Origin: Phyllobates terribilis
Lineage: Eukaryota
Assembly: GCF_046119375.1 (NCBI RefSeq)
Contig: NW_027362765.1
Span: 136,152,001-136,216,000 of the forward strand
Length of the DNA stretch: 64,000 bases
Direction of reading: 5' to 3'
The notes under the pieces are model-generated. The model had not been told where the DNA came from, made no database searches, and worked only from the letters and a program-made list of their open reading frames with translations. Both the position numbers and the translations under genes were made by a program. Positions 18,548 through 59,000 of the stretch are shown one piece after another (the first letter of the stretch is position 1; each line of letters begins with the position of its first letter).

Positions 18548-18964
18548 TTACACTATGTGTGACTGCACACTGGGGTGTTACTGCAAGGGGGCATGTGATC
18601 ATAAACATAAGAAGGTTTGGTTGCTAAGAAGACGATTCCAGTTGGGTTTTATGAAATGGCTTCTTCTCGCATGCGCACTACACAAACCGAAGGATCTCTG
18701 AGACCTTGGGCTGAGGATTGGCCACCACTCCTCAGCCAGCGCTTTGTGTTTGCCCCCATTTTCCAGCCAGACCCTGAATAGTAGAAGTCAAGCGATATGA
18801 GCGCAATGAACCACTATTGTAACGTCAAATCTGGAATTTTCCTTTAATACGGGGTTGACGCTGAGTGTGAGAGAGAGAAATGGCAAATGATTTTTGCCAG
18901 TGACTGAGCAAGACGGCGCAAGCTGCAGAGATAGGCAATGTAAATTACCGCTCACTTTATTTAA

Positions 18965-21900
18965 CCCCTTTACAACCCAAGGTGGTTTGCACGTTAATGA
19001 CCAGGCCAATTTTTACAATTCTGACCACTGTCACTTTATGAGGTAATTACTCTGGAACGCTTCAACGGATCCCCCTGATTCTGAGATTGTTTTTTCGTGA
19101 CCTATTGTACTTCATATTGTACTTCATGATTGTGGTAAAATTTCTTCTATATCACTTGCATTTATTTGTGAAAAAAACAAAAATTTGGCAAAAATTTTGA
19201 AAATTTTAATTATCCCCTTAAATCACAGAGAGATGTCACACAAAATAGTTAATAAATAACATTTCCCACATGTCTACTTTACATCAGCACAATTTTGGAA
19301 CCAAATTTTTTTTTTTATTAGGGAGCTATAAGGGTTAAAAGTTGACCAGCGATTTCTCATTTTTCCAACAAAATTTACAAAACCATTTTTTTAGGGACCA
19401 CATCACATTTGAAGTCACTTTGAGAGGTCTTTATGACAGAAAATACCCAAAAGTGACACCATTCTAAAAACTGCATCCCTCAAGGTGCTCAAAACCACAT
19501 TCAAGAACTTTATTAACCCTTCAGGTGCTTCATAGGAATTTTTGGAATGTGGAAGAAAGAAATTAACATTTAACTTTTTTCACAAAAATGTTACTTTAGA
19601 CCCAAGTTTTTTTTTGTTTTCGCAGGGGTAACCGGAAAAAATGGACCCCAAAATCTGTTGTGCAATTTCCCCTGGGCACGCAGATACCCCATATGTGGGG
19701 AAAAACCTCTGTTTGGGCTCATGGCAGGGTTCGGAAGGGAAGGAGCGCCATTTGACTTTTTGAATGTAAAATTTGCTTGAATAATTAGCGGACGCCATGT
19801 TGCATTTGGGGAGACCCTGATGTGCCTAAACAGTGGAAACCCCCCACAAGTGACACCATTTTGGAAACTAGACCCCCTCAAGGAACTTATCTACATGTGT
19901 GGTGAGCACCTTGAACCCCCAGGTGCTTCACAGAAGTTTATAACATTGAGCTGTAAAAATAAAATGTTCACATTTTTCCCACAAAAATGTTTTTCAGCCC
20001 CCAGTTTTGCATTTTCATAAGGGTAACAGGAGAAATTGCACGATGCAGTTTGTTGTGCAATTTCTCCTGAGTAAGCAGATACCCCATATGTGGGGGAAAA
20101 CCACTGTTTGGGCGCACGGCAGGGTTCAGAAAGGAAGGAGCGCCATTTGACTTTTTGATTGAAAAATTTGCTTGAATAATTAGTGGATGTGCCTAAACAG
20201 TGGAAACCCCCCACAAGTGACACCATTTTTTAAACTAGACCCCTCAGGGAACTTCTCTAGATGTGTGGTGAGCACCTTGAACCCCCAAGTCCTTTACAGA
20301 AGTTTATAACATGGAGCCGTGAAAATAAAAAAATCTAACTTTTTCCACAAAAATGATGTTTTAGCCCCATTTTTTTTATTTTCACAAGGGTAAGAGGAGA
20401 AAATGGACCCCAAAAACTTTTGTGCAATTTCTCCTGAGCACGCCAATATATGTGGGGAAAATAGTGTTTGGGCGCACGGCAGAGTTCAGAAGGGAAGGAG
20501 CACTGTGTGACTTTTTGAACGCAAAATCGGCTGAAATCAAGAGCGGACGCCATGTCGCTTTTGGAGAGCCCCTGATGTGCCTAAATAGTGGAAACCCCCC
20601 ACAAGTGACCCCATTTTGGAAACTACACCCCTCAAGGATTTTATCAAGGAGTATAGTGAACATTTTGAACCCAGAGGTACGACAGAATTTAATAACATTA
20701 GGTCATCATATTGAATAAGTTGTCATTAGTCTTGAGCACAAGTGCTCACTGCTTGAGTTTGCATCGGGTACTCAGGTATGCACCATGTATCGCGGGTGCT
20801 CGAGTCCACGCCCGCATGTTTCACGGTTATTAGACACCCCCAAAAAAAACACGCGGGGATCGCTCGTACATGGCAGGCAATCCCCGCGAGGTTTTTTTGC
20901 CCGCGAAGCATATGGGGCGGAGACTCGAGCATGTCACTCAAGTACCCTCGATACTCAATGCATACCCAAGCACCTGATGCAAACTCAAGTAGCGAGCACT
21001 TGCGCTCAACACTAGTTGCCATATCGTCAACTTTTTTTTTTTTTTTACTTCTGAAAAAAAAAACAACCCTAACACCAACCCCAGCCCTAGCATTTATTTT
21101 TTACGCCGTTCCTAGTGCGGTATAAGTGATTAGACGACTTTATTCTTCGGGTCGGTGTGATTACAGCGATACCAGAATCATATCGGGTTTTTATGATTGA
21201 CAGCTGTCACACACTAAAAGACACACATTTTGTAAAATCTAGTTTTTGCGTCGCCATATTTTGAGAGCTATAATTTTTCCATATTTTGGCAGACAGAGTT
21301 ATGCGACAGCTTGTTTTTTGCGGGACGAGTTGACGTTTTTATTGGTGCCATTTTCAGGCACGTGACATTTTTTGATCGCTTTCTATTCCAGTTTTTGGGA
21401 GGCAGAATAAACAAAAACCAACAATTCAGGAATTTTCATTTTTTTATTTTTTTATTCTGCTCCGTGTGTGGTAAAATTGATAAGGTAGCTTTATTCTTCA
21501 GGTCAGTACGTTTACAGTGGTACCACATTTATATTGTTTTTCTATGTTTTGGCGCTTTTACACAATGAAAGCTATGTTATAGAAAAAAATATTTTTTTGC
21601 ATCGCTTTATTCTGAGAGCTATAACTTTTATTTTTCGGCTGATTGAGCTGTATTGCAGCTTGTTTTTTGCGGGACGAGATGACGTTTTCGGCGGTAACAT
21701 TTTTATTTATATTCGTCTTTTTGATTGCGTGTTATTCCATTTTTTGTTTGGCGGTATGATGATAAAGCATTGTTTTTTGCTTCATTTTTTATTTTATTTT
21801 TTTACAGTGTTCACTGAAGGGGTTAACTAGTTGGACAATTTTATAGGTCAGGTCGTTCCGGACGCGGCGATACCAAATATGTGTACTTTTATGTTTTGTT

Positions 21901-22552
21901 TTTTTTTTTGTTCTTTCATAATAATATTTATTGATGGGTACATTATATTTTTATTTTTGGTGGATTTTTTTTTTTTTTAATATTTTTACAATTTTTTTTT
22001 TTTTTTTCACTTTCTGACAGTTTTTTTACTTTTAGACTTTGTCCCACTATAAGACTTTCACTTTTTTTTATTCTGATCACCTGCATAGCATAGGAATGGA
22101 GCACCATCCCTGTGCCATGCAGGCTGTCAGTGCTGCACAGTGAGAAGATAGTTTGGTCATGTACTGCGCATGACCAAAAAATCTTCCTGCTGTCTGGTGA
22201 CCCGGATGTTGTCATGACGACATCGGGTTGTCATGGCAACATCCGGGAAGCCACGGCAGACAGCGCTGGAGGCCGGAAGAGGAGGTGAGTATACCGATCA
22301 CCTCCCCTTAGCCACCGCAATGCTGCGATCGACTTCAATCGCAGCATTGCGGGGTTAATGTGCCGGGAGCGGTCCGGGACCGCTCCCTGCACATAGAACC
22401 GGGTGTCAGCTGTGACAATCAGCTGACACCCGCCGGCGATCGCACCCGCACAGCCTGTGTGCACGGACGATCGCCAAGACGTACTAATACGGGTCAGGCT
22501 CTTAAAGCCCAGGGCACAGACGGGTATTAGTACGTCTTGGGCTTTAAAGGGG
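18965..22552. mobile_element. ~3.6-kb non-autonomous piggyBac-like element with internal tandem subrepeats
   Basis: TTAA on both sides; termini cccctttacaacccaag / cttgggctttaaagggg; motif gtggaaacccc..caagtgac recurs at 19833, 20200 and 20588; no transposase ORF. Confidence 0.75.
20727..21014. mobile_element. hAT MITE nested in the piggyBac-like element
   Basis: TIRs tagtcttgagcacaagtgctc / gagcacttgcgctcaacacta; 8-bp TSD gttgtcat / gttgccat. Confidence 0.8.
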
Positions 22553-22663
22553 TTAATGTATATGGATGTAAATTAATAAAAAACAGCATTTTCTATGTTT
22601 GAATTGTCACTCTCTGCAAAGAGAAACATTACCCATTAGGTCCCAGTCCAGAGCCTCTCACCT

Positions 22664-22747
22664 AGCCAAATCAGATCTCATACTTTGCACTGATGAGGGG
22701 CAGTACCCCGAAACACCGTGTCTGCAAATTGAGATTCTGATTTGGCT
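22664..22747 (+). ncRNA. Type I hammerhead ribozyme
   Basis: Core CTGATGA (22690-22696), stem II gggg-cagta-cccc, GAAA (22710-22713), minimal stem III, GTC cleavage triplet (22720-22722). Stem I tttgca/tgcaaa is extended by tctca/tgaga and agccaaatcaga/tctgatttggct. Confidence 0.85.
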
Positions 22748-23367
22748 TTTAACCTAAGTCATGTGATCAGGCTCCTTAAAGAGTCTGTATTGACTTTTAG
22801 GATTGCTGCTTCCTATAGGTGGCGCTAGAGTTCTAGTCCTCTTCCTCTGAAAAGACAATTTGCATATTTAATTTCCATGCCTTACAAGTCTCCTCACTAA
22901 CATTCCAGGCTTAGCTTACTCTCCACAAGGAGACACGTTACCTCTTAGACCCCATATGGCCTTTTCAAAATAATACTGAAAAATCTGTAAATATTTGGTT
23001 ATTTCTTCTTTATATACGTGCCCCTGACTGCTGCGCCCTAGGCCATGGCCTAGGTTGGCTTTATGGGAAATCCGACCGTGTCTGGGACTGTTGCCAACTA
23101 TGATTATGACGGACATCTATTTGGTCTTCACATAATCAGTAAAATACAAGAAGGTATCATTCATTAGATTTTATTACATGTAACACGGGACTTGCTAGGA
23201 AAATAGAAGATAAATGTAGTAAAATATTTCCAAGAGGAAAATGGTGACCATTTGTAGGTATAATTGACCAGTGATATTGCTTATCCCAAATAGCAAAAAT
23301 GTGTATATTACGTTTTTTTTCTATGCGTTTTTATCGTTGTGTTTTTTTGTATCTTTTTGGTGTCATA

Positions 23368-25009
23368 CAGTTATATGAAAAAGTTTGGGCACCCCTATTA
23401 ATCTTAAGCTTAATGTTTTCTTAAAATTGGTGTTTTTGCAACAGCTATTTCAGTTTGATCTATGTAATAACTGTTGGACACAGTAATGTTTCTGCCTTGA
23501 AATGAGGTTTATTGTACTAACAGAAAATGTGCAATCTGCATTCAAACAAAATTTGACAGGTGCATAAGTATGGGCACCTCACCAGAAAAGTGACATTAAT
23601 ATTTAGTAGATCCTCTTTTTGCAAAAATAACAGCCTCTAGTCGCTTCCTGTAGCTTTTAATGAGATCCTGGATGAAGGTATTTTTGACCATTCCTCTTTA
23701 CAAAACAATTCCAGTTCAGTTAAGTTTGATGGTCGCCGAGCATGGACAGCCCTCTTCAAATGATCCCACAGATGTTCAATGATATTCAGGTCTGGGGACT
23801 GGGATGGCCATTCCAGAACATTGTAATTGTTCCTCTGCATGAATGCCTGAGTAGATTTGGAGCGGTGTTTTGGATCATTGTCTTGCTGAAAGATCCATCC
23901 CCTGCGTAACTTCAACTTTATCACTGATTCTTGAACATTATTGTCAAGAATCTGCTGATACTGAGTGGAATCCATGAGTCCCTCAACTTTAACAAGATTC
24001 CCCGTGCCGGCATTGGCCACACAGCCCCAAAGCATGATGGAACCTCCACCAAATTTTACTGTGGGTAGGAAGTGTTTTTCTTGGAATGCTGTGTTTTTTT
24101 GCCGCCATGCATAACGCCTTTTTGTATGACCAAACAACTCAATCTTGGTTTCATCAGTCCACAGGACCTTCTTCCAAAAAGAAATTGGCTTCTCCAAATG
24201 TGCTTTTGCATACCTCAGCTGACTCTGTTTGTGGCGTGCTTGCAGAAACGGCTTCTTTCGCATGACTCTCCCATACAGCTTCTCCTTGTGCAAAGTGCGT
24301 TGTATAGTTGACCGATGCACAGTGACACCATCTGCAGCAAGTTGATGCTGCAGCTCTCTGGAGGTGGTCTGAGGATTGTCCTTGACTGATCTCACCATTC
24401 TTCTTCTCTGCCTTTCTGATGTTTTTCTTGGCCTGCCACTTCTGGCCTTAACAAGAACTGTCCCTGTGTTCTTCCATTTCCTTACTATGTTCCTCACAGT
24501 GGAAACTGACAGGTTAAATCTCTGAGACAGCTTTTTGTATCCTTCCCCTGAACAACTATGTTGAATAATCTTTGTTTTCAGATCATTTGACAGTTGTTTT
24601 GAGGAGCCCATGATGCCACTCTTCAGAGGAGATTCAAACAGGAAAACAACTTGCAAGTGGCCACTTTAAGTAGCTTTTCTCATGATTGCATACAGCTGGC
24701 TATGAAGTTCAAAGCTCAATGAGGTTACAAAACCTAAAAAAGTGCTTTAGTAAGTCAGTAAAAAGTAGGTAGGAGTATTTAAAACAAGAAAATGATAAGG
24801 GTGCCCATACTTATGCACTGTCAAATTTTGTTTGAATGCAGATTGCACATTTTCTGTTAGTACAATAAACCTCATTTCAATGCAGAAACATTACTGTGTC
24901 CAACAGTTATTACATATATCAAACTGAAATAGCTGTTGCAAAAACACCAATTTAAAGAAAACATTAAGCTTAAGATTAATAGGGGTGTCCAAACTTTTTC
25001 ATATAACTG
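23368..25009 (-). mobile_element. Full-length Tc1 (DD34E) transposon with ~210-bp TIRs
   Basis: TA TSD; termini cagttatatgaaaaagtttgg / ccaaactttttcatataactg; internal repeats within the TIRs; 1642 bp. Confidence 0.96.
23596..24611 (-). pseudogene. Tc1 transposase, intact except for a C-terminal frameshift
   Basis: MGSSKQ...GRPRK...WTDETKIE...QQDNDPKH...SPDLNIIEH, with 34 residues between the second D and the E. The frame shifts after KIPSSRI; the expected end LIKSYRKRLEAVIFAKRGSTKY* lies in another frame. Confidence 0.9.
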
Positions 25010-25953
25010 TATGTTAAATAAAACTGCTTTGTTTTTGATACTTCCAGGTATTTGGCTTTGACAAAACTTTATTGATATAGTGATGTGCGGATTACATGCG
25101 TTTTTTTTATGTGTTCCCACTGAAAAAACACTTGCGTTTCTTATCTGTGGATTTTCCACATCTAATGGAAGTCTATGGGGAAAATCTGCACCGAAAACTC
25201 TGCGTATCTGCAAGACTAAGTGACATGTTGCGGATTTAAAACACGCACCGCAGGTCAGTTTATGCTGAGAAAAAAAAAAAGCACAGTGTGAATGAGATTT
25301 CTATAAACCCCATCCAATTTTCTGGAACTTTTTGACACAATGGAAATACACAGCATTAAAAACGCACCAAAACTCATTGTGGGAAAATGGCCTAAGTGTT
25401 TATGCAGCATTTTTTACAGCCATAGGAAACAATAAGAAAGTACAAAAACATGACAAGAAAGCAACAAACAGGTTTTGCTGAATTTTTGCATCCTTGTTAA
25501 ATATATATATATATTTTTATAGATGTACTATAGACAAATCACACATGTAATCTGCACCAAAAAATTGCAGTATTTGTACAGCTAAGAGGGAAGGTTTTGG
25601 CTGCTAAAATGCCACAAGTGAACATAACCTTTATCCACTCTGGTACAGCTCACATCTGTGTGAAATTCTAGTTCTTCTCGCAATCTGCTTTCAGCTTCAT
25701 CACAAAGGAGAACTCTTGCTCATGTATATTATGGTGTCAGTTATGAGACACTGGAAGATTTTTTCAATAAGTACCCCTGTGGCAAACAACGGACCCCATT
25801 GATAATAGAGTTCACCTTGTTCTGCCTTGATGTTTGTAATTTTGGTGGGAAAAATAAAGGTGGTTTTAGATGAAGCGAAAAATCAGCAAATGAGCATTCT
25901 TGATTGGATTGTTTATGCCAGCATAATACTCTCGGTTATAAAACTCTAGGTTA

Positions 25954-44499: not shown

Positions 44500-47175
44500 T
44501 TTATTTTGAAACGGAAACAATGGTCGGATTGAAACGAAATTTTTCATGCCTGTAGGCCAGACCCTGAATTTCATGATATGGAAATTGTTTTGCTGTTTTC
44601 AAATCAATTCTAGGGGCTGCAACCCTCTAAACATCCCAAATTGGAAAGCGGCTAGAACAATTCCAAAGAAGGCGACTTTTCTCTGAAATTGTCAAATGGA
44701 TTGGTTTGAAAATCTCGTCAGTGATGGTCGATTATAAAAACTACCCCTCCGGTGCACCCCTAAACGCAAACCCTCCCCAAAGGATTGAAAATGGGGCGAT
44801 AATGATAACCTTGGTTTAATCAGTAAGCTTTCAAAGGCGCCCAAAAATGTCTGGAAGCTGGTCAAGAAATCTGAATGTTTATCCCCATTTTCAGGGCATT
44901 TGCATGTGTACCCCTTAGAATTTACCCCCTAAACGTCATGTTATGCAAAGAGGCAAACATTATGTTCATCTCCTCACATCTACTGATCAGTCTAACCAAT
45001 TTGCATCATCAAATGACCTGTCAAAAGCCACCAAGGGATAAAAACCCTCCCTATGTCTAACAGTTTAGCCGCAGCGGTCACCACTAACTTCAGCATCTAA
45101 GGGATTAAATGGCAACTAAGAAATTATCTTCAATCTATAGACCTGATTTCACCTTCTGATCGGAGTTGATGTATAGCGCCAGAACACGCTCTCATGAAGG
45201 TCTGTGTATCCTGATCAATCTGGTCGTGCTCGCTGTCCGTCATGTGGGAATTTAAACACATGGCTACAGGAAAAAAAAAGCAAATGAAAAACCACCATTA
45301 GTGACCACAAAATGCCACCCAGTCAGGTCATTATACAGTGACAAGTATGGTCCATATTTCAAACTGTAATTTTTTGGTAGCAACATGATTTGCTCTTGGT
45401 AGAGGAAGAAAAAAAATGGCTCCCATATTTAAAGTGTTTTTCCGCCTTCAGGAAAGTGGATCCTAAACGCTCTAAAATAACTAAAGTAGAGTAGGTATTC
45501 AGCCTCCTGTGCTCTTCCCCTCTCCTCTGGGTCCAATGCTGCTTGGGTCTACCTGTGCACAACTGCCAAGCTCAGTGATTGGCTACATTGATGTTGCGTG
45601 GAGGCAAAAAGACCTGAGCAGCATCGGGGAGGCGGCACTGGACCTGGGGAAGGAGAGTATCTGCTCTGTTTGTTATTTTAGAGCATTTTGGGTCCACTGA
45701 AAATGGAAAACCCTTTATATTTTTTGGTTAATCTGGTATTAAGAACCAAAAGCAAAATTAAAGGGTTAGTTTCAGGTCTGATCACATACTCCAGATTATT
45801 TAGACTTCTAAAGCAGAGTGCGTCACATTGAACTCCGCAAAAGTAAAAAAAGAAGAACCTCATAGGCTCCATGGAACGTTATACCTAGTGCAGTGCTGGA
45901 GGGGAGAGGGCTGAAAACCCCTTAGTGTGAATAAACTATTTACTGAACATTTTGTTATCGCTCTTCGGAGTTTACAGGCCAGATCATTCAGCCCCCCCCC
46001 CCCCCCCATGTTTTTCCTTTGTTTGTTGTTTGTTTTTTAAAATTCAAATGCTCATGTGAATGCACGAGGACAGCCTGACAGAACGCTAGTCTTGCCATAT
46101 TGGCCAAACAAACAGGTATTGCTTCTAAGGGGTTTTCAACCCACCCCCACCCCCGTGTAAGGGCTAACAACTCTTTTTAAGGTGTATCTGTAAGGCATAT
46201 CTGTAGGGAAAAACAAAAACCCAACAGACACCTGAAACAATGGTTAAAATCACAAGTTCAGCAGAAACACAAGTGCAGACGTGAAATAGAGTTGAAAAGG
46301 GGTGGTTTCTTCTTCTGTACAGTAATGGGGTTTTGGGAGGATGGAGAGGAGGCGTACACCACCTTTTGACCCAAGTTTTGAAATTTTCTCTCCATTAAGA
46401 AAATTCATTTCATGGGGTTGAAATTTGGGGTCCTTTTTGTGTGTCCCCCCACCCCCCCAAATGAGGGCTGGGGTGCCAGTAGTGCCACAAAAATGTGGGG
46501 CAAGCCTTACAGCATTACACCCCACAATCCATGCTGACTGTGTCCAAAATGCTCCAACCCCCACTTTTATGTGTGTGTGGGGGGTGGTAATGGCGTTTTT
46601 ACCGCTTGGTGGATTTTGACGGTCATCTGATGATGCAGATTGGTTAGACTGATCAGTAGATGTGAGATGAACATAATGTTTGCCTCTTTGCATAACATGA
46701 GGTTTTAGGGGGTAAATTCTAAGGGGTACACATGCAAAATCCCTGAAAATGGGGATAAACATTCCGATTTCTTGACCAGCTTCCAGACATTTTTGGGCAC
46801 CTTTGAAAGCATACTGATTAAACCAAGGTTATCATTATCGCCCCATTCTCAAGTCTTTGGGGAGGGTTTGAGTTTAGGGGTGTACCGGAGGGGTAGTTTT
46901 TATCGTAGGCGGTTGAACTTGACAGGATCACAAATGATAGGCAATCGACCATCACTGATGAGATTTTCAAACCAATCCATTCGACAGTTTCAGAGAAAAG
47001 TCGCCTTCTTTGGAATTGTTCTAACCGCTTTCCAATTTGGGGTGTTTAGAAGATTGCAGCCCCTAGAATTGATTTGAAAACAGCAAAACAATTTCTGTAT
47101 CATGAAATTCAGGGTCTGGCCTAAAGCCATGCAAAATTTTGTTTCAATCCGTCCATTGTTTCCATTTCAGAATGA
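44500..47175. repeat. Inverted pair of ~550-bp repeat copies (44500-45045, 46595-47175)
   Basis: Mirror ORF-track peptides MFIPIFR.FACVPLRIYPL at 44875(+) and 46762(-); the sequences align by eye with scattered differences and one ~40-bp indel. Confidence 0.8.
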
Positions 47176-48073
47176 ATGAATACTTGGCCGGGGCTCCTTT
47201 TGCATCAATTACTGCATCAATGCGGCGTGGCATGGAGGCGATCAGCGTGTGGCACTGCTGAGGTGTTATGGAAGCCCAGGTTGCTTTGATAGCAGCCTTC
47301 AGCTCGTCTGCATTGTTGGCTCTGGTGTCTCTCATCTTCCTCTTGACAATACCCCATAGATTCTCTATGGGGTTAAGGTCAGGCGAGTTTGCTGGCCAAT
47401 CAAGCACAGTGATGCTGTTGTTTGTAAACCAGGTATTGGTACTTTTGGCAGTGTGGACAGGTGCCAAGTCCTGCTGGAGAATGAAATTTCCATCTCCAAA
47501 AATCTTGTCGGCAGAGGGAAGCATGAAGTGCTCTAAAATTTCCTGGTAGACGGCTGCGCTGACTTTGGTCTTGATAAAACACAGTGGACCTACACCAGCA
47601 GATGACATGGCTCCCCAAACCATCACTGATTGTGGAAACTTCACACTAGACCTCAAGCAGCTTGGATTGTGGCCTCTCCACTCTTCCTCCAGACTCTGGG
47701 ACCTTGATTTCCAAATGAAAATTGGAACTCTGGGACCTTGTGGAGTGTGTCAATGACTGCCTTCTGGACATCTGTCAAGTCAGCAGTCTTCCCCATGATT
47801 GTGGAGCCTACTGAAACAGACTAAGGGGTCTTTTTAAATGCTTCGGAAGCCTTTGCAGGTGTTTTTTGTTAATTATTCAAATTTACTGAGATAATGACTT
47901 TTGTGTTTTCATTGACTGTAAGCCATAATCATCAACATTAACAGAAATAAACACTTGAAATAGATCACTCTGTTTGTAATGACTCTATATAATATATGAG
48001 TTTCACTTTTTGTATTGAAGAACTGAAATAAATTAACTTTTTGATGATATTCTAATTTAGTGAGAAACACCTG
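47176..48073 (-). mobile_element. Tc1 deletion derivative, same family as 1146-2070, left TIR present
   Basis: ORF 47144-47656 is nearly identical to 1314-1793, with WPANSPDLNPIENLW; terminus ...cacctg followed by TA; truncated at the transposase stop. Confidence 0.92.
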
Positions 48074-56000: not shown

Positions 56001-59000
56001 TGTGCTTAACCAAGAATGGTTCCCATGCAGCGCCGGACGTCTCCGGATAACTCCTTTAAAACTGTCTAGGCCAAGTTTGCACTAAAAATTAGACAATATT
56101 GAGTACAATTCCCATTGCTGTCATGTCAGTGAGCAGGAACAAAGAAAAAATCCCTGAATCATGATCAATCTCCTCCATCCTGCACTAGACATAAGCGTCG
56201 TGCTCCGCCCCTCAACTACACTAGACATAAGCGTCGTGCTCCGCCCCTCAACTACACTAGACATAAGCGTCGTACTCCGCCCCTCAACTACACAGACATA
56301 AGCGTCGTGCTCCGCCCCTCAACTACACTAGATATAAGCGTCGTGCTCCGCCCCTCAACTACATTAGACATAAGCGTCGTGCTCCGCCCCTCAACTACAT
56401 TAGACATAAACGTCGTGCTCCGCCCCTCAACTACACTAGACATAAGCGTCGTGCTCCGCCCCTCAACTACACTAGACATAAGCGTCGTGCTCCGCCCCTC
56501 AACTACACTAGATATAAGCGTCGTGCTCCGCCCCTCAACTACACTAAACATAAGCGTCGTGCTCCGCCCCTCAACTACACTAGACATAAGCGTCGTGCTC
56601 CGCCCCTCTACTACACTAGACATAAGCGTCGTGCTCCGCCCCTCAACTACACTAGACATAAGCGTCGTGCTCAGCGCCTCAACTACACTAGACATAAGCG
56701 TCGTGCTCCGCCCCTCAACTACACTAGACATAAGCGTCGTGCTCCGCCCCTCAACTACACTAGACATAAGCGTCGTGCTCCACCCCTCAACTACACAGAC
56801 ATAAGCGTCGTGCTCAGCCCCTCAACTACACTAGACATAAGCGTCGTGCTCCACCCCTCAACTACACTAGACATAAGCGTCGTGCTCCGCCCCGTTTTTT
56901 TTTGGACTATAAGACGCACCTAGGTTTTAGAGGAGGAAAATAGAAAAAAAAAGTTAAGCAAAAAATGTTGTCATGATGCCCTGTTAATGGTGAGGGGGGT
57001 CTGCTGCTGACACTGTTATAGGGGTAATGTCCCCCAATTCTGTTAATATCCCCGATCCTGGTATATACGGCCCCCTTATCCTGTTATACATGGCCCTCAT
57101 CCGCATCTCGGTATGCATGGCATCCCTCATACCTCTTCCTGGTATGTATGGCACCCCTCATCCCTCTTCCTGGTATGTATGGCCCCCCTCGTGAGATAGT
57201 CTGCCGGAATGGTCACTGCTCCCCACACCGGGACTGTGTGCGTGGGGAGCAATGACCATTCACTCACCTTAATAACACGCACACTGTACCCGCAGCGCGG
57301 CTCCTGCTGCCGCTCTGCGGTCTGTGTGCCCGCTATTAAAGACCATAAATATTCACTACAATCCACTCCCATAGTACTCTAGGCACCTCTATGATGAGGA
57401 ATATACTTGTACTTCAGGGTGGGCCTGTGGGCGGGTCTTTATTTGCTGATCTGGCCTAGAGCACCAGGATAAGACCCTGCCTACAGTCCCGCCCTGGAGC
57501 ACGAGCATGTCATTAACTCATCACTGCAAACACTGATTACACAAGATGGATTTCTTCACCTCAGGTATCATATTAATCAGTGCAGCAGCCCCAATCTGTC
57601 AATGCCTGTAGTTTACTTAGCAAAATCCTGCTGACAGGTTCCCTTCAAGTGTCATGCTCCGCCCCTCTAGCCTGCACTAGACACGAGTATCATGCTCCGC
57701 CCCTCTAGCCAGCACTAGACACGAGTGTCATGCTCCGCCCCTCGGCTACACTAGACACGAGTGTCATGCTCCGCCCCTCGGCTACACTAGACACGAGTGT
57801 CATGCTCCGCCCCTCGGCTACACTAGACACGAGTGTCATGCTCCGCCCCTCTAGCTACACTAGACACGATTGTCATGCTCCGCCCCTCTAGCTACACTAG
57901 ACACGAGTGTCATGCTCCGCCCCTCTAGCCTGCACTAGACACGAGTGTCATGCTCCGCCCCTCTAGCCTGCACTAGACACGAGTGTCATGCTCCGCCCCT
58001 CTAGCCTGCACTAGACACGAGTGTCATGCTCCGCCCCTCTAGCCTGCACTAGACACGAGTGTCATGCTCCGCCCCTCGGCTACACTAGACACGAGTGTCA
58101 TGCTCCGCCCCTCTAGCCTGCACTAGACACGAGTGTCATGCTCCGCCCCTCTAGCCTGCACTAGACACGAGTGTCATGCTCCGCCCCTCGGCTACACTAG
58201 ACACGAGTGTCATGCTCCGCCCCTCGGCTACACTAGACACGAGTGTCATGCTCCGCCCCTCTAGCTACACTAGACACGATTGTCATGCTCCGCCCCTCTA
58301 GCTACACTAGACACGATTGTCATGCTCCGCCCCTCTAGCTACACTAGACACGAGTGTCATGCTCCGCCCCTCTAGCCTGCACTAGACACGAGTGTCATGC
58401 TCCGCCCCTCTAGCCTGCACTAGACACGAGTGTCATGCTCCGCCCCTCTAGCCTGCACTAGACACGAGTGTCATGCTCCGCCCCTCTAGCCTGCACTAGA
58501 CACGAGTGTCATGCTCCGCCCCTCTAGCCTGCACTAGACACGAGTGTCATGCTCCGCCCCTCTAGCCTGCACTAGACACGAGTGTCATGCTCCGCCCCTC
58601 GGCTACACTAGACACGAGTGTCATGCTCCGCCCCTCTAGCCTGCACTAGACACGAGTGTCATGCTCCGCCCCTCTAGCCTGCACTAGACACGAGTGTCAT
58701 GCTCCGCCCCTCGGCTACACTAGACACGAGTGTCATGCTCCGCCCCTCGGCTACACTAGACACGAGTGTCATGCTCCGCCCCTCGGCTACACTAGACACG
58801 AGTGTCATGCTCCGCCCCTCGGCTACACTAGACACGAGTGTCATGCTCCGCCCCTCGGCTACACTAGACACGAGTGTCATGCTCCGCCCCTCGGCTACAC
58901 TAGACACGAGTGTCATGCTCCGCCCCTCGGCTACACTAGACATAACCGTTTTACCTAGAGCGTTTCTTTAGTTGCTGGTAAACGAGTGGTTTGTACATGT

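Follow-up and report, generated by a model that had tools for sequence, protein, structure and literature searches.

Non-LTR retrozymes, in the working definition that we take from the available text of two studies (PMC7229834, PMC7761336), are non-coding units of about 150–450 bp with one type I hammerhead ribozyme each and target duplications of more than 4 bp. According to the accessible part of a recent preprint (Li, Clavereau and Pollet, 2026; 10.64898/2026.07.22.740005), they occur in all seven amphibians tested, have a mean length of 316 bp and are linked to the termini of Penelope-like elements (PLEs); one of nine Xenopus dimers cleaved in vitro. PLEs had been named as candidate mobilisers of animal retrozymes (Cervera and de la Pena, 2020; PMC7229834, as far as its available text goes), to which the same part of the preprint adds co-occurrence and pLTR homology while calling the mechanism unresolved. 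Hammerheads that have an extended stem I or cleave as dimers have been described from salamanders and PLEs, and hammerheads associated with repeats from Xenopus (available text of PMC6155905, PMC6765202 and PMC3088659). As to PLEs themselves, the accessible part of one study describes the PAc protein as cutting and extending both strands at AT-rich sites, with reverse transcription beginning at two internal sites, which delimit the “tail”, and on RNA that is mostly uncleaved (PMC11167929), and excerpts of two others describe inverted, 5′-truncated copies of which just one end is tailed, as well as duplications of 8–10 bp (PMC8557442, PMC3846280).

Here we analysed a stretch of 64,000 nucleotides from Phyllobates terribilis (“the window”), which contains one copy of a 329-bp repeat with a hammerhead ribozyme. 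By sequence definition, the repeat family counts as a non-LTR retrozyme of the newt satellite-2 type, and we consider it highly probable that the window copy is a decayed solo member, spread in trans by the reverse transcriptase/GIY-YIG protein of a Penelope-like element, probably a Neptune. Like the non-LTR retrozymes of animals, as described in the available sources, the family consists of a non-coding unit of about 330 bp with one type I hammerhead each, occurs as monomers and short arrays, has larger target duplications (above 4 bp in the family, not at the window copy) and shares its genome with PLEs; unlike them, the P. terribilis insertions are mostly dispersed, comprise 1–3.6 units and had no pLTR match in our sample. 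With newt satellite 2 and the axolotl retrozymes HHR_Amex1/2 it shares the length of about 330 bp, an extended stem I with internal loop, a weak palindromic stem III needing a dimer, and a perfect octamer. Stem III differs in detail (here ACAC-N-GUGU with at most 3 bp and a triloop, in axolotl 1–2 bp and a tetraloop), as does copy number, with thousands here against about 120,000 for the newt satellite 2 and HHR_Amex1/2 retrozymes. Two internal 3′ ends, a tail at one end, head-to-head inversion, duplications of 8–16 bp, AT-rich targets and missing poly(A) are in turn shared with PLEs (Poseidon PAc, PMC11167929; Neptune; Adineta Penelopes, PMC3846280; each as far as the available text goes). 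Unlike PLEs, the 329-bp unit has no open reading frame, carries a full canonical instead of a minimal ribozyme and has a tail of about 100 bp, compared with 30–40 bp in described PLEs and 70–100 bp in the Neptune-like families of P. terribilis.

The ribozyme and its repeat family

The window copy comprises the following features, of which those of the ribozyme were read directly from the letters:

22604..22954, + strand: complete retrozyme insertion, with the 329-bp unit present about 1.1 times
22664..22747, + strand: extended type I hammerhead ribozyme with a 23-bp stem I and a UAC/U internal loop
22664-75/22736-47, + strand: outer part of stem I, 12 bp
22676-80/22730-34, + strand: middle part of stem I, 5 bp
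22684-89/22723-28, + strand: proximal part of stem I, 6 bp
22690..22696, + strand: core CUGAUGA
22697..22709, + strand: stem II, 4 bp GGGG/CCCC (22697-700/22706-09), with the 5-nt loop II
22710..22722, + strand: GAAA (22710-13), palindromic stem III ACAC-C-GUGU (22713-21) and C17 (22722)
22858..22865, + strand: perfect octamer ATTTGCAT, exact in 129 sampled units
22861..22876, + strand: end site B, unit position about 259–277
22877..22954, + strand: “tail” bounded by end sites B and A; its family length of about 100 bp is reduced here by deletions
22921..22932, + strand: small hairpin with an AC-rich tetraloop that precedes end site A by about 17 nt and has a pair probability of 0.99 when the unit is folded
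22946..22954, + strand: end site A, where the window copy stops, unit position about 33–41

The initial annotation had described a single hammerhead with an intact core, a 23-bp stem I (6+5+12) with an internal loop and a 4-bp stem II, and all of this is borne out by the sequence: every core element was read at its position, a hammerhead descriptor matched once in the 64-kb window and in none of 100 shuffles, and the window holds no second copy. Stem I is interrupted by the UAC/U internal loop and a single bulged U, the fold has a z-score of −4.28, and pair probabilities are 0.7–1.0 for stems I and II except for one pair next to the bulge (0.5). With a conserved core, three helices and an open helix I, the ribozyme at 22664-22747 is a genuine type I hammerhead, whose cleavage site is predicted after C22722. 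The Schistosoma Sm-alpha ribozyme appears to share its 6-bp proximal stem I, an internal loop with UAC and a loop II of the form C...A with UA/CA at its end; unlike Sm-alpha, which has a Pol III promoter, the unit has so short a stem III that efficient cleavage as a monomer would not be expected.

Stem III had been called nearly self-complementary and too tight to close in a monomer. It is indeed weak and near-palindromic, with a pair probability of 0.03–0.04 in the monomer, but a closed form of 3 bp and a triloop is only 0.4 kcal/mol worse than the open one, so that “too tight” overstates the case. The proposed pairing between two copies is clearly favoured (self-duplex of the 9-nt palindrome −7.4, hairpin +2.1 kcal/mol).

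Rfam models do not recognise the family. The ribozyme had no match at the gathering score, an E-value scan over 2.5 kb returned no hammerhead, and the best hammerhead model was RAGATH-1 with 17.8 bits (E 0.48, 106 bases scanned). The model proposed for checking the initial annotation, RF00163, matched the 329-bp family neither in the window nor in the genome, where three sub-threshold matches among the 74 scored of about 2 million candidates all belong to other hammerhead families.

In the 10.57-Gb genome, a first search returned 4,055 first-look candidates (40 scored, 63 matches) and a longer query 11,030, while an exact 35-letter core pattern matched 93 times and a control pattern not at all; these counts indicate thousands of dispersed copies. 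The period is 329 bp, the unit loci checked contain no reverse transcriptase reading frame, and the tandem copies anticipated by the initial annotation exist as arrays of up to 3.6 units, with at least two adjacent intact ribozymes in nine of 19 long loci. A young subfamily, 2–9% diverged, includes intact trimers and tetramers. In contigs of four runs whose RNA status was guessed, 314–773 records were family-like at 80% likeness, a comparison in which strand, ends and circles are not readable.

A lack of covariation of stems I and II across genomic copies was part of what the initial annotation would have counted against its reading. Our covariation alignment comprised 67 of 98 ribozyme segments, hand-picked and enriched for subfamily and stem II variants, and 93.2% of its cells pair. 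Two-sided changes occupy 37 cells compared with 10.0 ± 5.3 in shuffles (0/500), whereas the number of pairs with a two-sided change is not above the shuffles (5 vs 4.1, 177/500). Among all sampled units, stem I pair 1 is U-A in 82, U-G in 41 and C-G in 21 of 159, stem I pair 2 is U-A in 135 and A-U in 11 of 162, and the loop-closing pair of stem II is G-C in 93 and C-G in 40 of 172. A hand count of the stem II pair in 87 pattern matches with both sides free gave 32 G-C, 23 C-G, 6 wobble, 16 G.G and 10 other combinations. The compensatory signal consists of three independent evolutionary events, two in stem I and one in stem II, a small number that nevertheless contradicts such a lack of covariation. 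A further A-U compensatory pair in stem II was rejected as a G-U subfamily plus random change, so that only G-C to C-G stands there. Together with the tandem copies and the favoured dimeric stem III, this covariation supports the initial assignment to the non-autonomous ribozyme retroelements of the retrozyme, newt satellite-2 and Penelope type.

The sole polymorphic core position is position 7 (U in 89 and C in 80 of 172 units), part of which may reflect CpG decay. The middle base of stem III (ACAC-N-GUGU) is C in 110, A in 31 and U in 28 of 176 units; other common variants lie mostly at core position 7 and in loops, and one, from A to U next to the bulge of stem I, disrupts a pair (unpaired in 17 of 66). 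Thirteen of the 16 stem II G.G cases are on unplaced scaffolds (C17, C35, C36, C47, C49, C71, C98, C119, C136, C140, C183, C235 and C251), 12 of which are identical over 33 nt, and the 13 probably represent one locus amplified inside a larger repeat.

After insertion, copies decay neutrally. CpG sites are changed at 31% of positions and other non-polymorphic sites at 5%, and among 39 units not selected on the ribozyme core, the core is kept in 22 and the core together with the stems in 13. Core divergence (16/465, 3.4%) compared with 5.3% at other non-polymorphic sites is a weak difference confounded by the choice of hits, and selection on individual copies was rejected on these grounds.

Newt satellite 2 reportedly has an snRNA-type promoter with an octamer and a PSE. 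The octamer ATTTGCAT also occurs at −240 in the P. terribilis U1 promoter and is, at the level of sequence, a lead towards such a promoter in the unit. For a PSE in the unit, the comparison with the U1 promoter is not significant (79% of shuffles score as high in the PSE-region alignment, and the spacing is atypical). The U1 snRNA genes form a 1,079-bp tandem array at C1:534628252-534671568 (40 units listed). Furthermore, a 16-mer of the unit at 22812-22827 resembles what we take to be the CTCF motif and is fairly well kept across family copies; thousands of unit copies could have spread candidate CTCF sites.

Anatomy of the insertions

The insertion analysis covered 102 loci with 110 insertions and left out segmental duplicates (L065, L076, L079-L081), a repeat fetch (L157), an unrelated array (L094) and loci of PLEs, U1 and other hammerheads. 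Outer 3′ ends (n = 154) concentrate at two places, classified by unit position as site B (about 255–280; 69 ends) and site A (about 28–50; 58 ends), with 27 ends elsewhere; sites A and B together account for 127 ends where 23 would be expected if ends were uniform. The two sites are about 100 nt apart, at distances of about 146 and 246 nt beyond the point of cleavage. None of the 154 ends comes closer to that point than about 10 nt, an absence partly forced by choosing loci for containing the ribozyme, and in the least biased subset, in which an end at C17 was allowed, none of 42 ends is found there.

All 44 insertions with two orientations are head-to-head and none is tail-to-tail. Their ends pair as A+B in 27 cases, A+A in one and B+B in two, with one end unclassified in the remaining 14; in an earlier subset, 22 of 24 pairings were AB (p = 1.8e-5). 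Target duplications of at least 8 bp (8–16 bp) flank 38 of 109 insertions compared with 2 of 109 controls, as determined with a search window that overlapped the element ends by 4–5 nt. Flanks are AT-rich (0.667 vs 0.580 ± 0.016), and 5-A tails are present at two of 92 ends. Because site B is itself AU-rich, its position is blurred by target microhomology.

Two internal 3′ ends, a tail at one end, head-to-head arms, AT-rich targets and the lack of poly(A) are thus all present, and the pattern of two ends, head-to-head arms and duplications is the Penelope “tail” signature. From it we infer that a Penelope-type transposon enzyme copies the 329-bp repeat, and that sites B and A would be the first and second internal starts of reverse transcription. 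The hairpin at 22921-22932 is, speculatively, a candidate for reverse transcriptase binding; it has no real covariation across the sampled units. A second hairpin before site B was rejected for its pair probability of 0 in the folded unit.

PLEs are abundant in the P. terribilis genome, with 4,370 GIY-YIG candidates (150 scored) and the GIY-YIG domain confirmed by Pfam, and their cysteine-rich linker suggests that they belong to the Neptune clade. Two Neptune-like families have alternative 3′ ends about 70–80 and 100 bp apart, like A and B. At least seven Neptune-like families were seen (L031-L060, L108-L127), with degenerate hammerhead cores in their termini, and in three such families the longer 3′ end stops 10–25 bp past a splice-donor-like CAGGTGAG.

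Template, parent and the window copy

In the course of events that we propose, source arrays of two to four units would be transcribed, and adjoining hammerheads would swap their palindromic stems III to cleave as dimers, as structure, covariation and the salamander precedent suggest; a contact between stem I and loop II may assist this cleavage. The borrowed protein, presumably the enzyme discussed above, would nick AT-rich DNA on both strands about 8–16 bp apart, and cDNA would start inside the RNA at the two fixed sites, one per strand. The outcome would be a head-to-head inverted insertion that is “tailed” at one of its ends, “untailed” at the other and flanked by a target duplication, followed by the neutral decay that is seen in the copies. 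The window copy would be a one-armed product ending at site A.

Which RNA serves as template can be judged from the inserted segments. A linear monomer released by cleavage is an unlikely template: of 161 segments, 68 are longer than a single unit, 122 run across the cleavage site and 3 have their 5′ end there, compared with 5.4 expected. Subfamily variants are common to both arms and to tandem units, with a concordance of 0.82 within an insertion and 0.55 between loci, which argues for one template lineage per insertion. All of this would also suit a circular monomer, produced by double cleavage and RtcB ligation, on which the reverse transcriptase runs round more than once, the template that current models of animal retrozymes assume; RNA circles have been shown in axolotl (available text of PMC7229834), and by analogy circular RNAs may exist for the 329-bp family. 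One circle should yield identical units, however, and in 16 young-subfamily loci, 35 of 56 locus-by-shared-variant cases are mixed within the insertion and 21 uniform. A linked variant pair is moreover confined to downstream units in three separate loci, and within-array distances are uneven (e.g. 2.4% vs 7.9%). We therefore regard the circular monomer as a serious but doubtful candidate, and lean slightly towards uncut multimeric RNA as the insertion template instead. The mosaics may have other sources: by our own estimate from a 1.9% background, recurrent mutation could account for about a third of the 15 shared variants, and further candidates are gene conversion, a local duplication at a later time, multimeric circles and template switching.

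A more far-reaching version of the multimer reading, held tentatively and at somewhat less than even chances, is that a Neptune-type protein, likely as a dimer, primes the two strands at the two fixed sites on one uncleaved multimer and not on a circular monomer, with the ribozyme selected for another role. Nearly every two-armed insertion would then be tailed at one end and untailed at the other because the two strands are primed at sites about 100 nt apart; and as the ribozyme is kept across subfamilies although cleavage would be off the insertion path, it would be selected for something else.

On another reading, the unit would be the solo pseudo-LTR plus 5′ tail of an undiscovered autonomous PLE, and its copies 5′-truncated PLE insertions. 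End architecture and tail length do match the Neptune-like elements of P. terribilis, only a small share of the PLE loci was examined, and of 57 retrozyme families in Xenopus, 24 have matches among repeats already known, in nearly every case PLE termini (10.64898/2026.07.22.740005, accessible part). In the loci checked, however, the sequence upstream of a unit is another unit or unique DNA and never the end of a reading frame, pure arrays reach 3.6 units, and the unit's ribozyme is canonical and extended where the PLE termini of this genome are minimal or degenerate. The initial annotation had seen no coding partner in the window and had suggested a search for a GIY-YIG/reverse transcriptase parent. 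We examined 50 of the 63 GIY-YIG matches, which came from scoring 150 of 4,370 candidates. The unit is the terminal repeat at none of these 50 loci, and neither they nor 77 unit loci contain a reverse transcriptase and GIY-YIG reading frame attached to the repeat. One GIY-YIG locus (L059) is a unit inserted inside a PLE with a 12-bp duplication. PLE proteins from eight loci have no match in the 77 unit loci, and the tail has no significant similarity to the termini of six PLE families; the best match of the unit body to PLE termini (p = 0.013) is one of 12 tests and is driven by the ribozyme core. We accordingly think it unlikely that the family is a PLE remnant.

Other hammerheads came to light in the same searches. 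Minimal hammerheads of the PLE type that have canonical cores and belong to other families are present at three loci (L154, L155 and L156), of which L155 is flanked by a 64-bp inverted repeat. At L094:1160-3034 (C2:954189294-954192327), four divergent type I hammerhead-like motifs lie about 280–350 bp apart and are followed by a tandem repeat of about 175 bp with one hammerhead-like motif per unit; apart from the 13 nt that surround the core, this cluster has no relation to the 329-bp unit.

The window copy itself consists of one 329-bp unit and about 40 bp more, with 87% identity to the family majority sequence. It has lost about 13 bp and some smaller pieces near 22876-22915, in the last third and outside the ribozyme, and no target duplication was found for it (best 5 nt). 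The initial annotation had placed its boundaries at 22557-22880 and had taken it for the terminal repeat of a larger element; alignment to the family corrects this to 22604-22954 and to about 1.1 copies of a whole unit. The earlier left boundary probably arose because a TTAA-ended palindromic DNA transposon ends at 22556. The copy had also been suggested as a source of small or circular RNAs, but with one cleavage site it would release neither monomer nor circle. It is probably an inert solo element, of which no more than weak cleavage would be expected, either in trans or as a monomer.

The copy is intergenic, between an upstream gene on the + strand with its last coding exon and stop at about 13280, which its motifs suggest to be PRELID3B-like, and a downstream gene on the + strand starting at about 28670, by the same token presumably ATP5F1E-like. 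They form part of a conserved gene block (4726-62727) that, again going by motifs, probably comprises PRELID3B, ATP5F1E, beta-tubulin (TUBB1-like), CTSZ and NELFCD. The copy lies on the same strand as both neighbours, 9.4 kb past the PRELID3B-like stop, and with its core and all stems intact it might be thought a domesticated regulatory ribozyme, comparable to amniote intronic hammerheads, or a terminator of PRELID3B read-through. This is very improbable: the copy is 13% diverged, has its deletions outside the ribozyme, and is not in an intron between coding exons of either gene. The same degree of intactness is found in 13 of 39 unselected units of the family, so that the intact core needs no special explanation and is mostly due to chance. 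That the family is a DNA-level satellite or MITE with an incidental or long dead hammerhead-like fold would agree with the neutral decay and the many palindromic MITEs near the window copy, but is hardly credible given the retrotransposition marks (fixed 3′ and variable 5′ ends, duplications of variable length, head-to-head inversions) and subfamily changes that preserve pairs.

Several other repeats share the window. Positions 18960-22556 hold a non-coding element of about 3.6 kb, whose terminal inverted repeats end in TTAA and whose interior contains many palindromes and a 395-bp tandem; it is probably a non-autonomous DNA transposon. A Tc1-family transposon at 23364-25013 has 215-bp inverted repeats and an open frame of 342 codons, with further Tc1 fragments at 1146-1793 and 47144-47824, and two related minisatellites with 36-bp and 38-bp units at 56180-58942 (about 95% matches) are highly homogeneous with a strong strand skew.

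Implications for animal retrozymes

The ribozyme is ordinary for amphibians, and the element is of an already known kind. What this analysis adds is that the insertion scars tie an amphibian retrozyme to Penelope-type copying unusually clearly. A two-end, AB-paired, head-to-head anatomy and an argument from mosaic units were not found stated for retrozymes in the literature searched, a body of text that leaves most subscription papers and the preprint supplements outside. Two open questions become directly testable, namely which enzyme moves animal retrozymes and whether circles are the transposition intermediate, as the family offers a 329-nt RNA, two predicted reverse transcription starts that are strongly coupled (27/30) and candidate Neptune partners in the same genome. 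If the tentative reading of two primed strands on one uncleaved multimer is true, the role of the ribozyme would lie elsewhere, for example in RNA stability via circles or in release from read-through transcripts, and the insertion scars would reveal the mobilisation mechanism of animal retrozymes.
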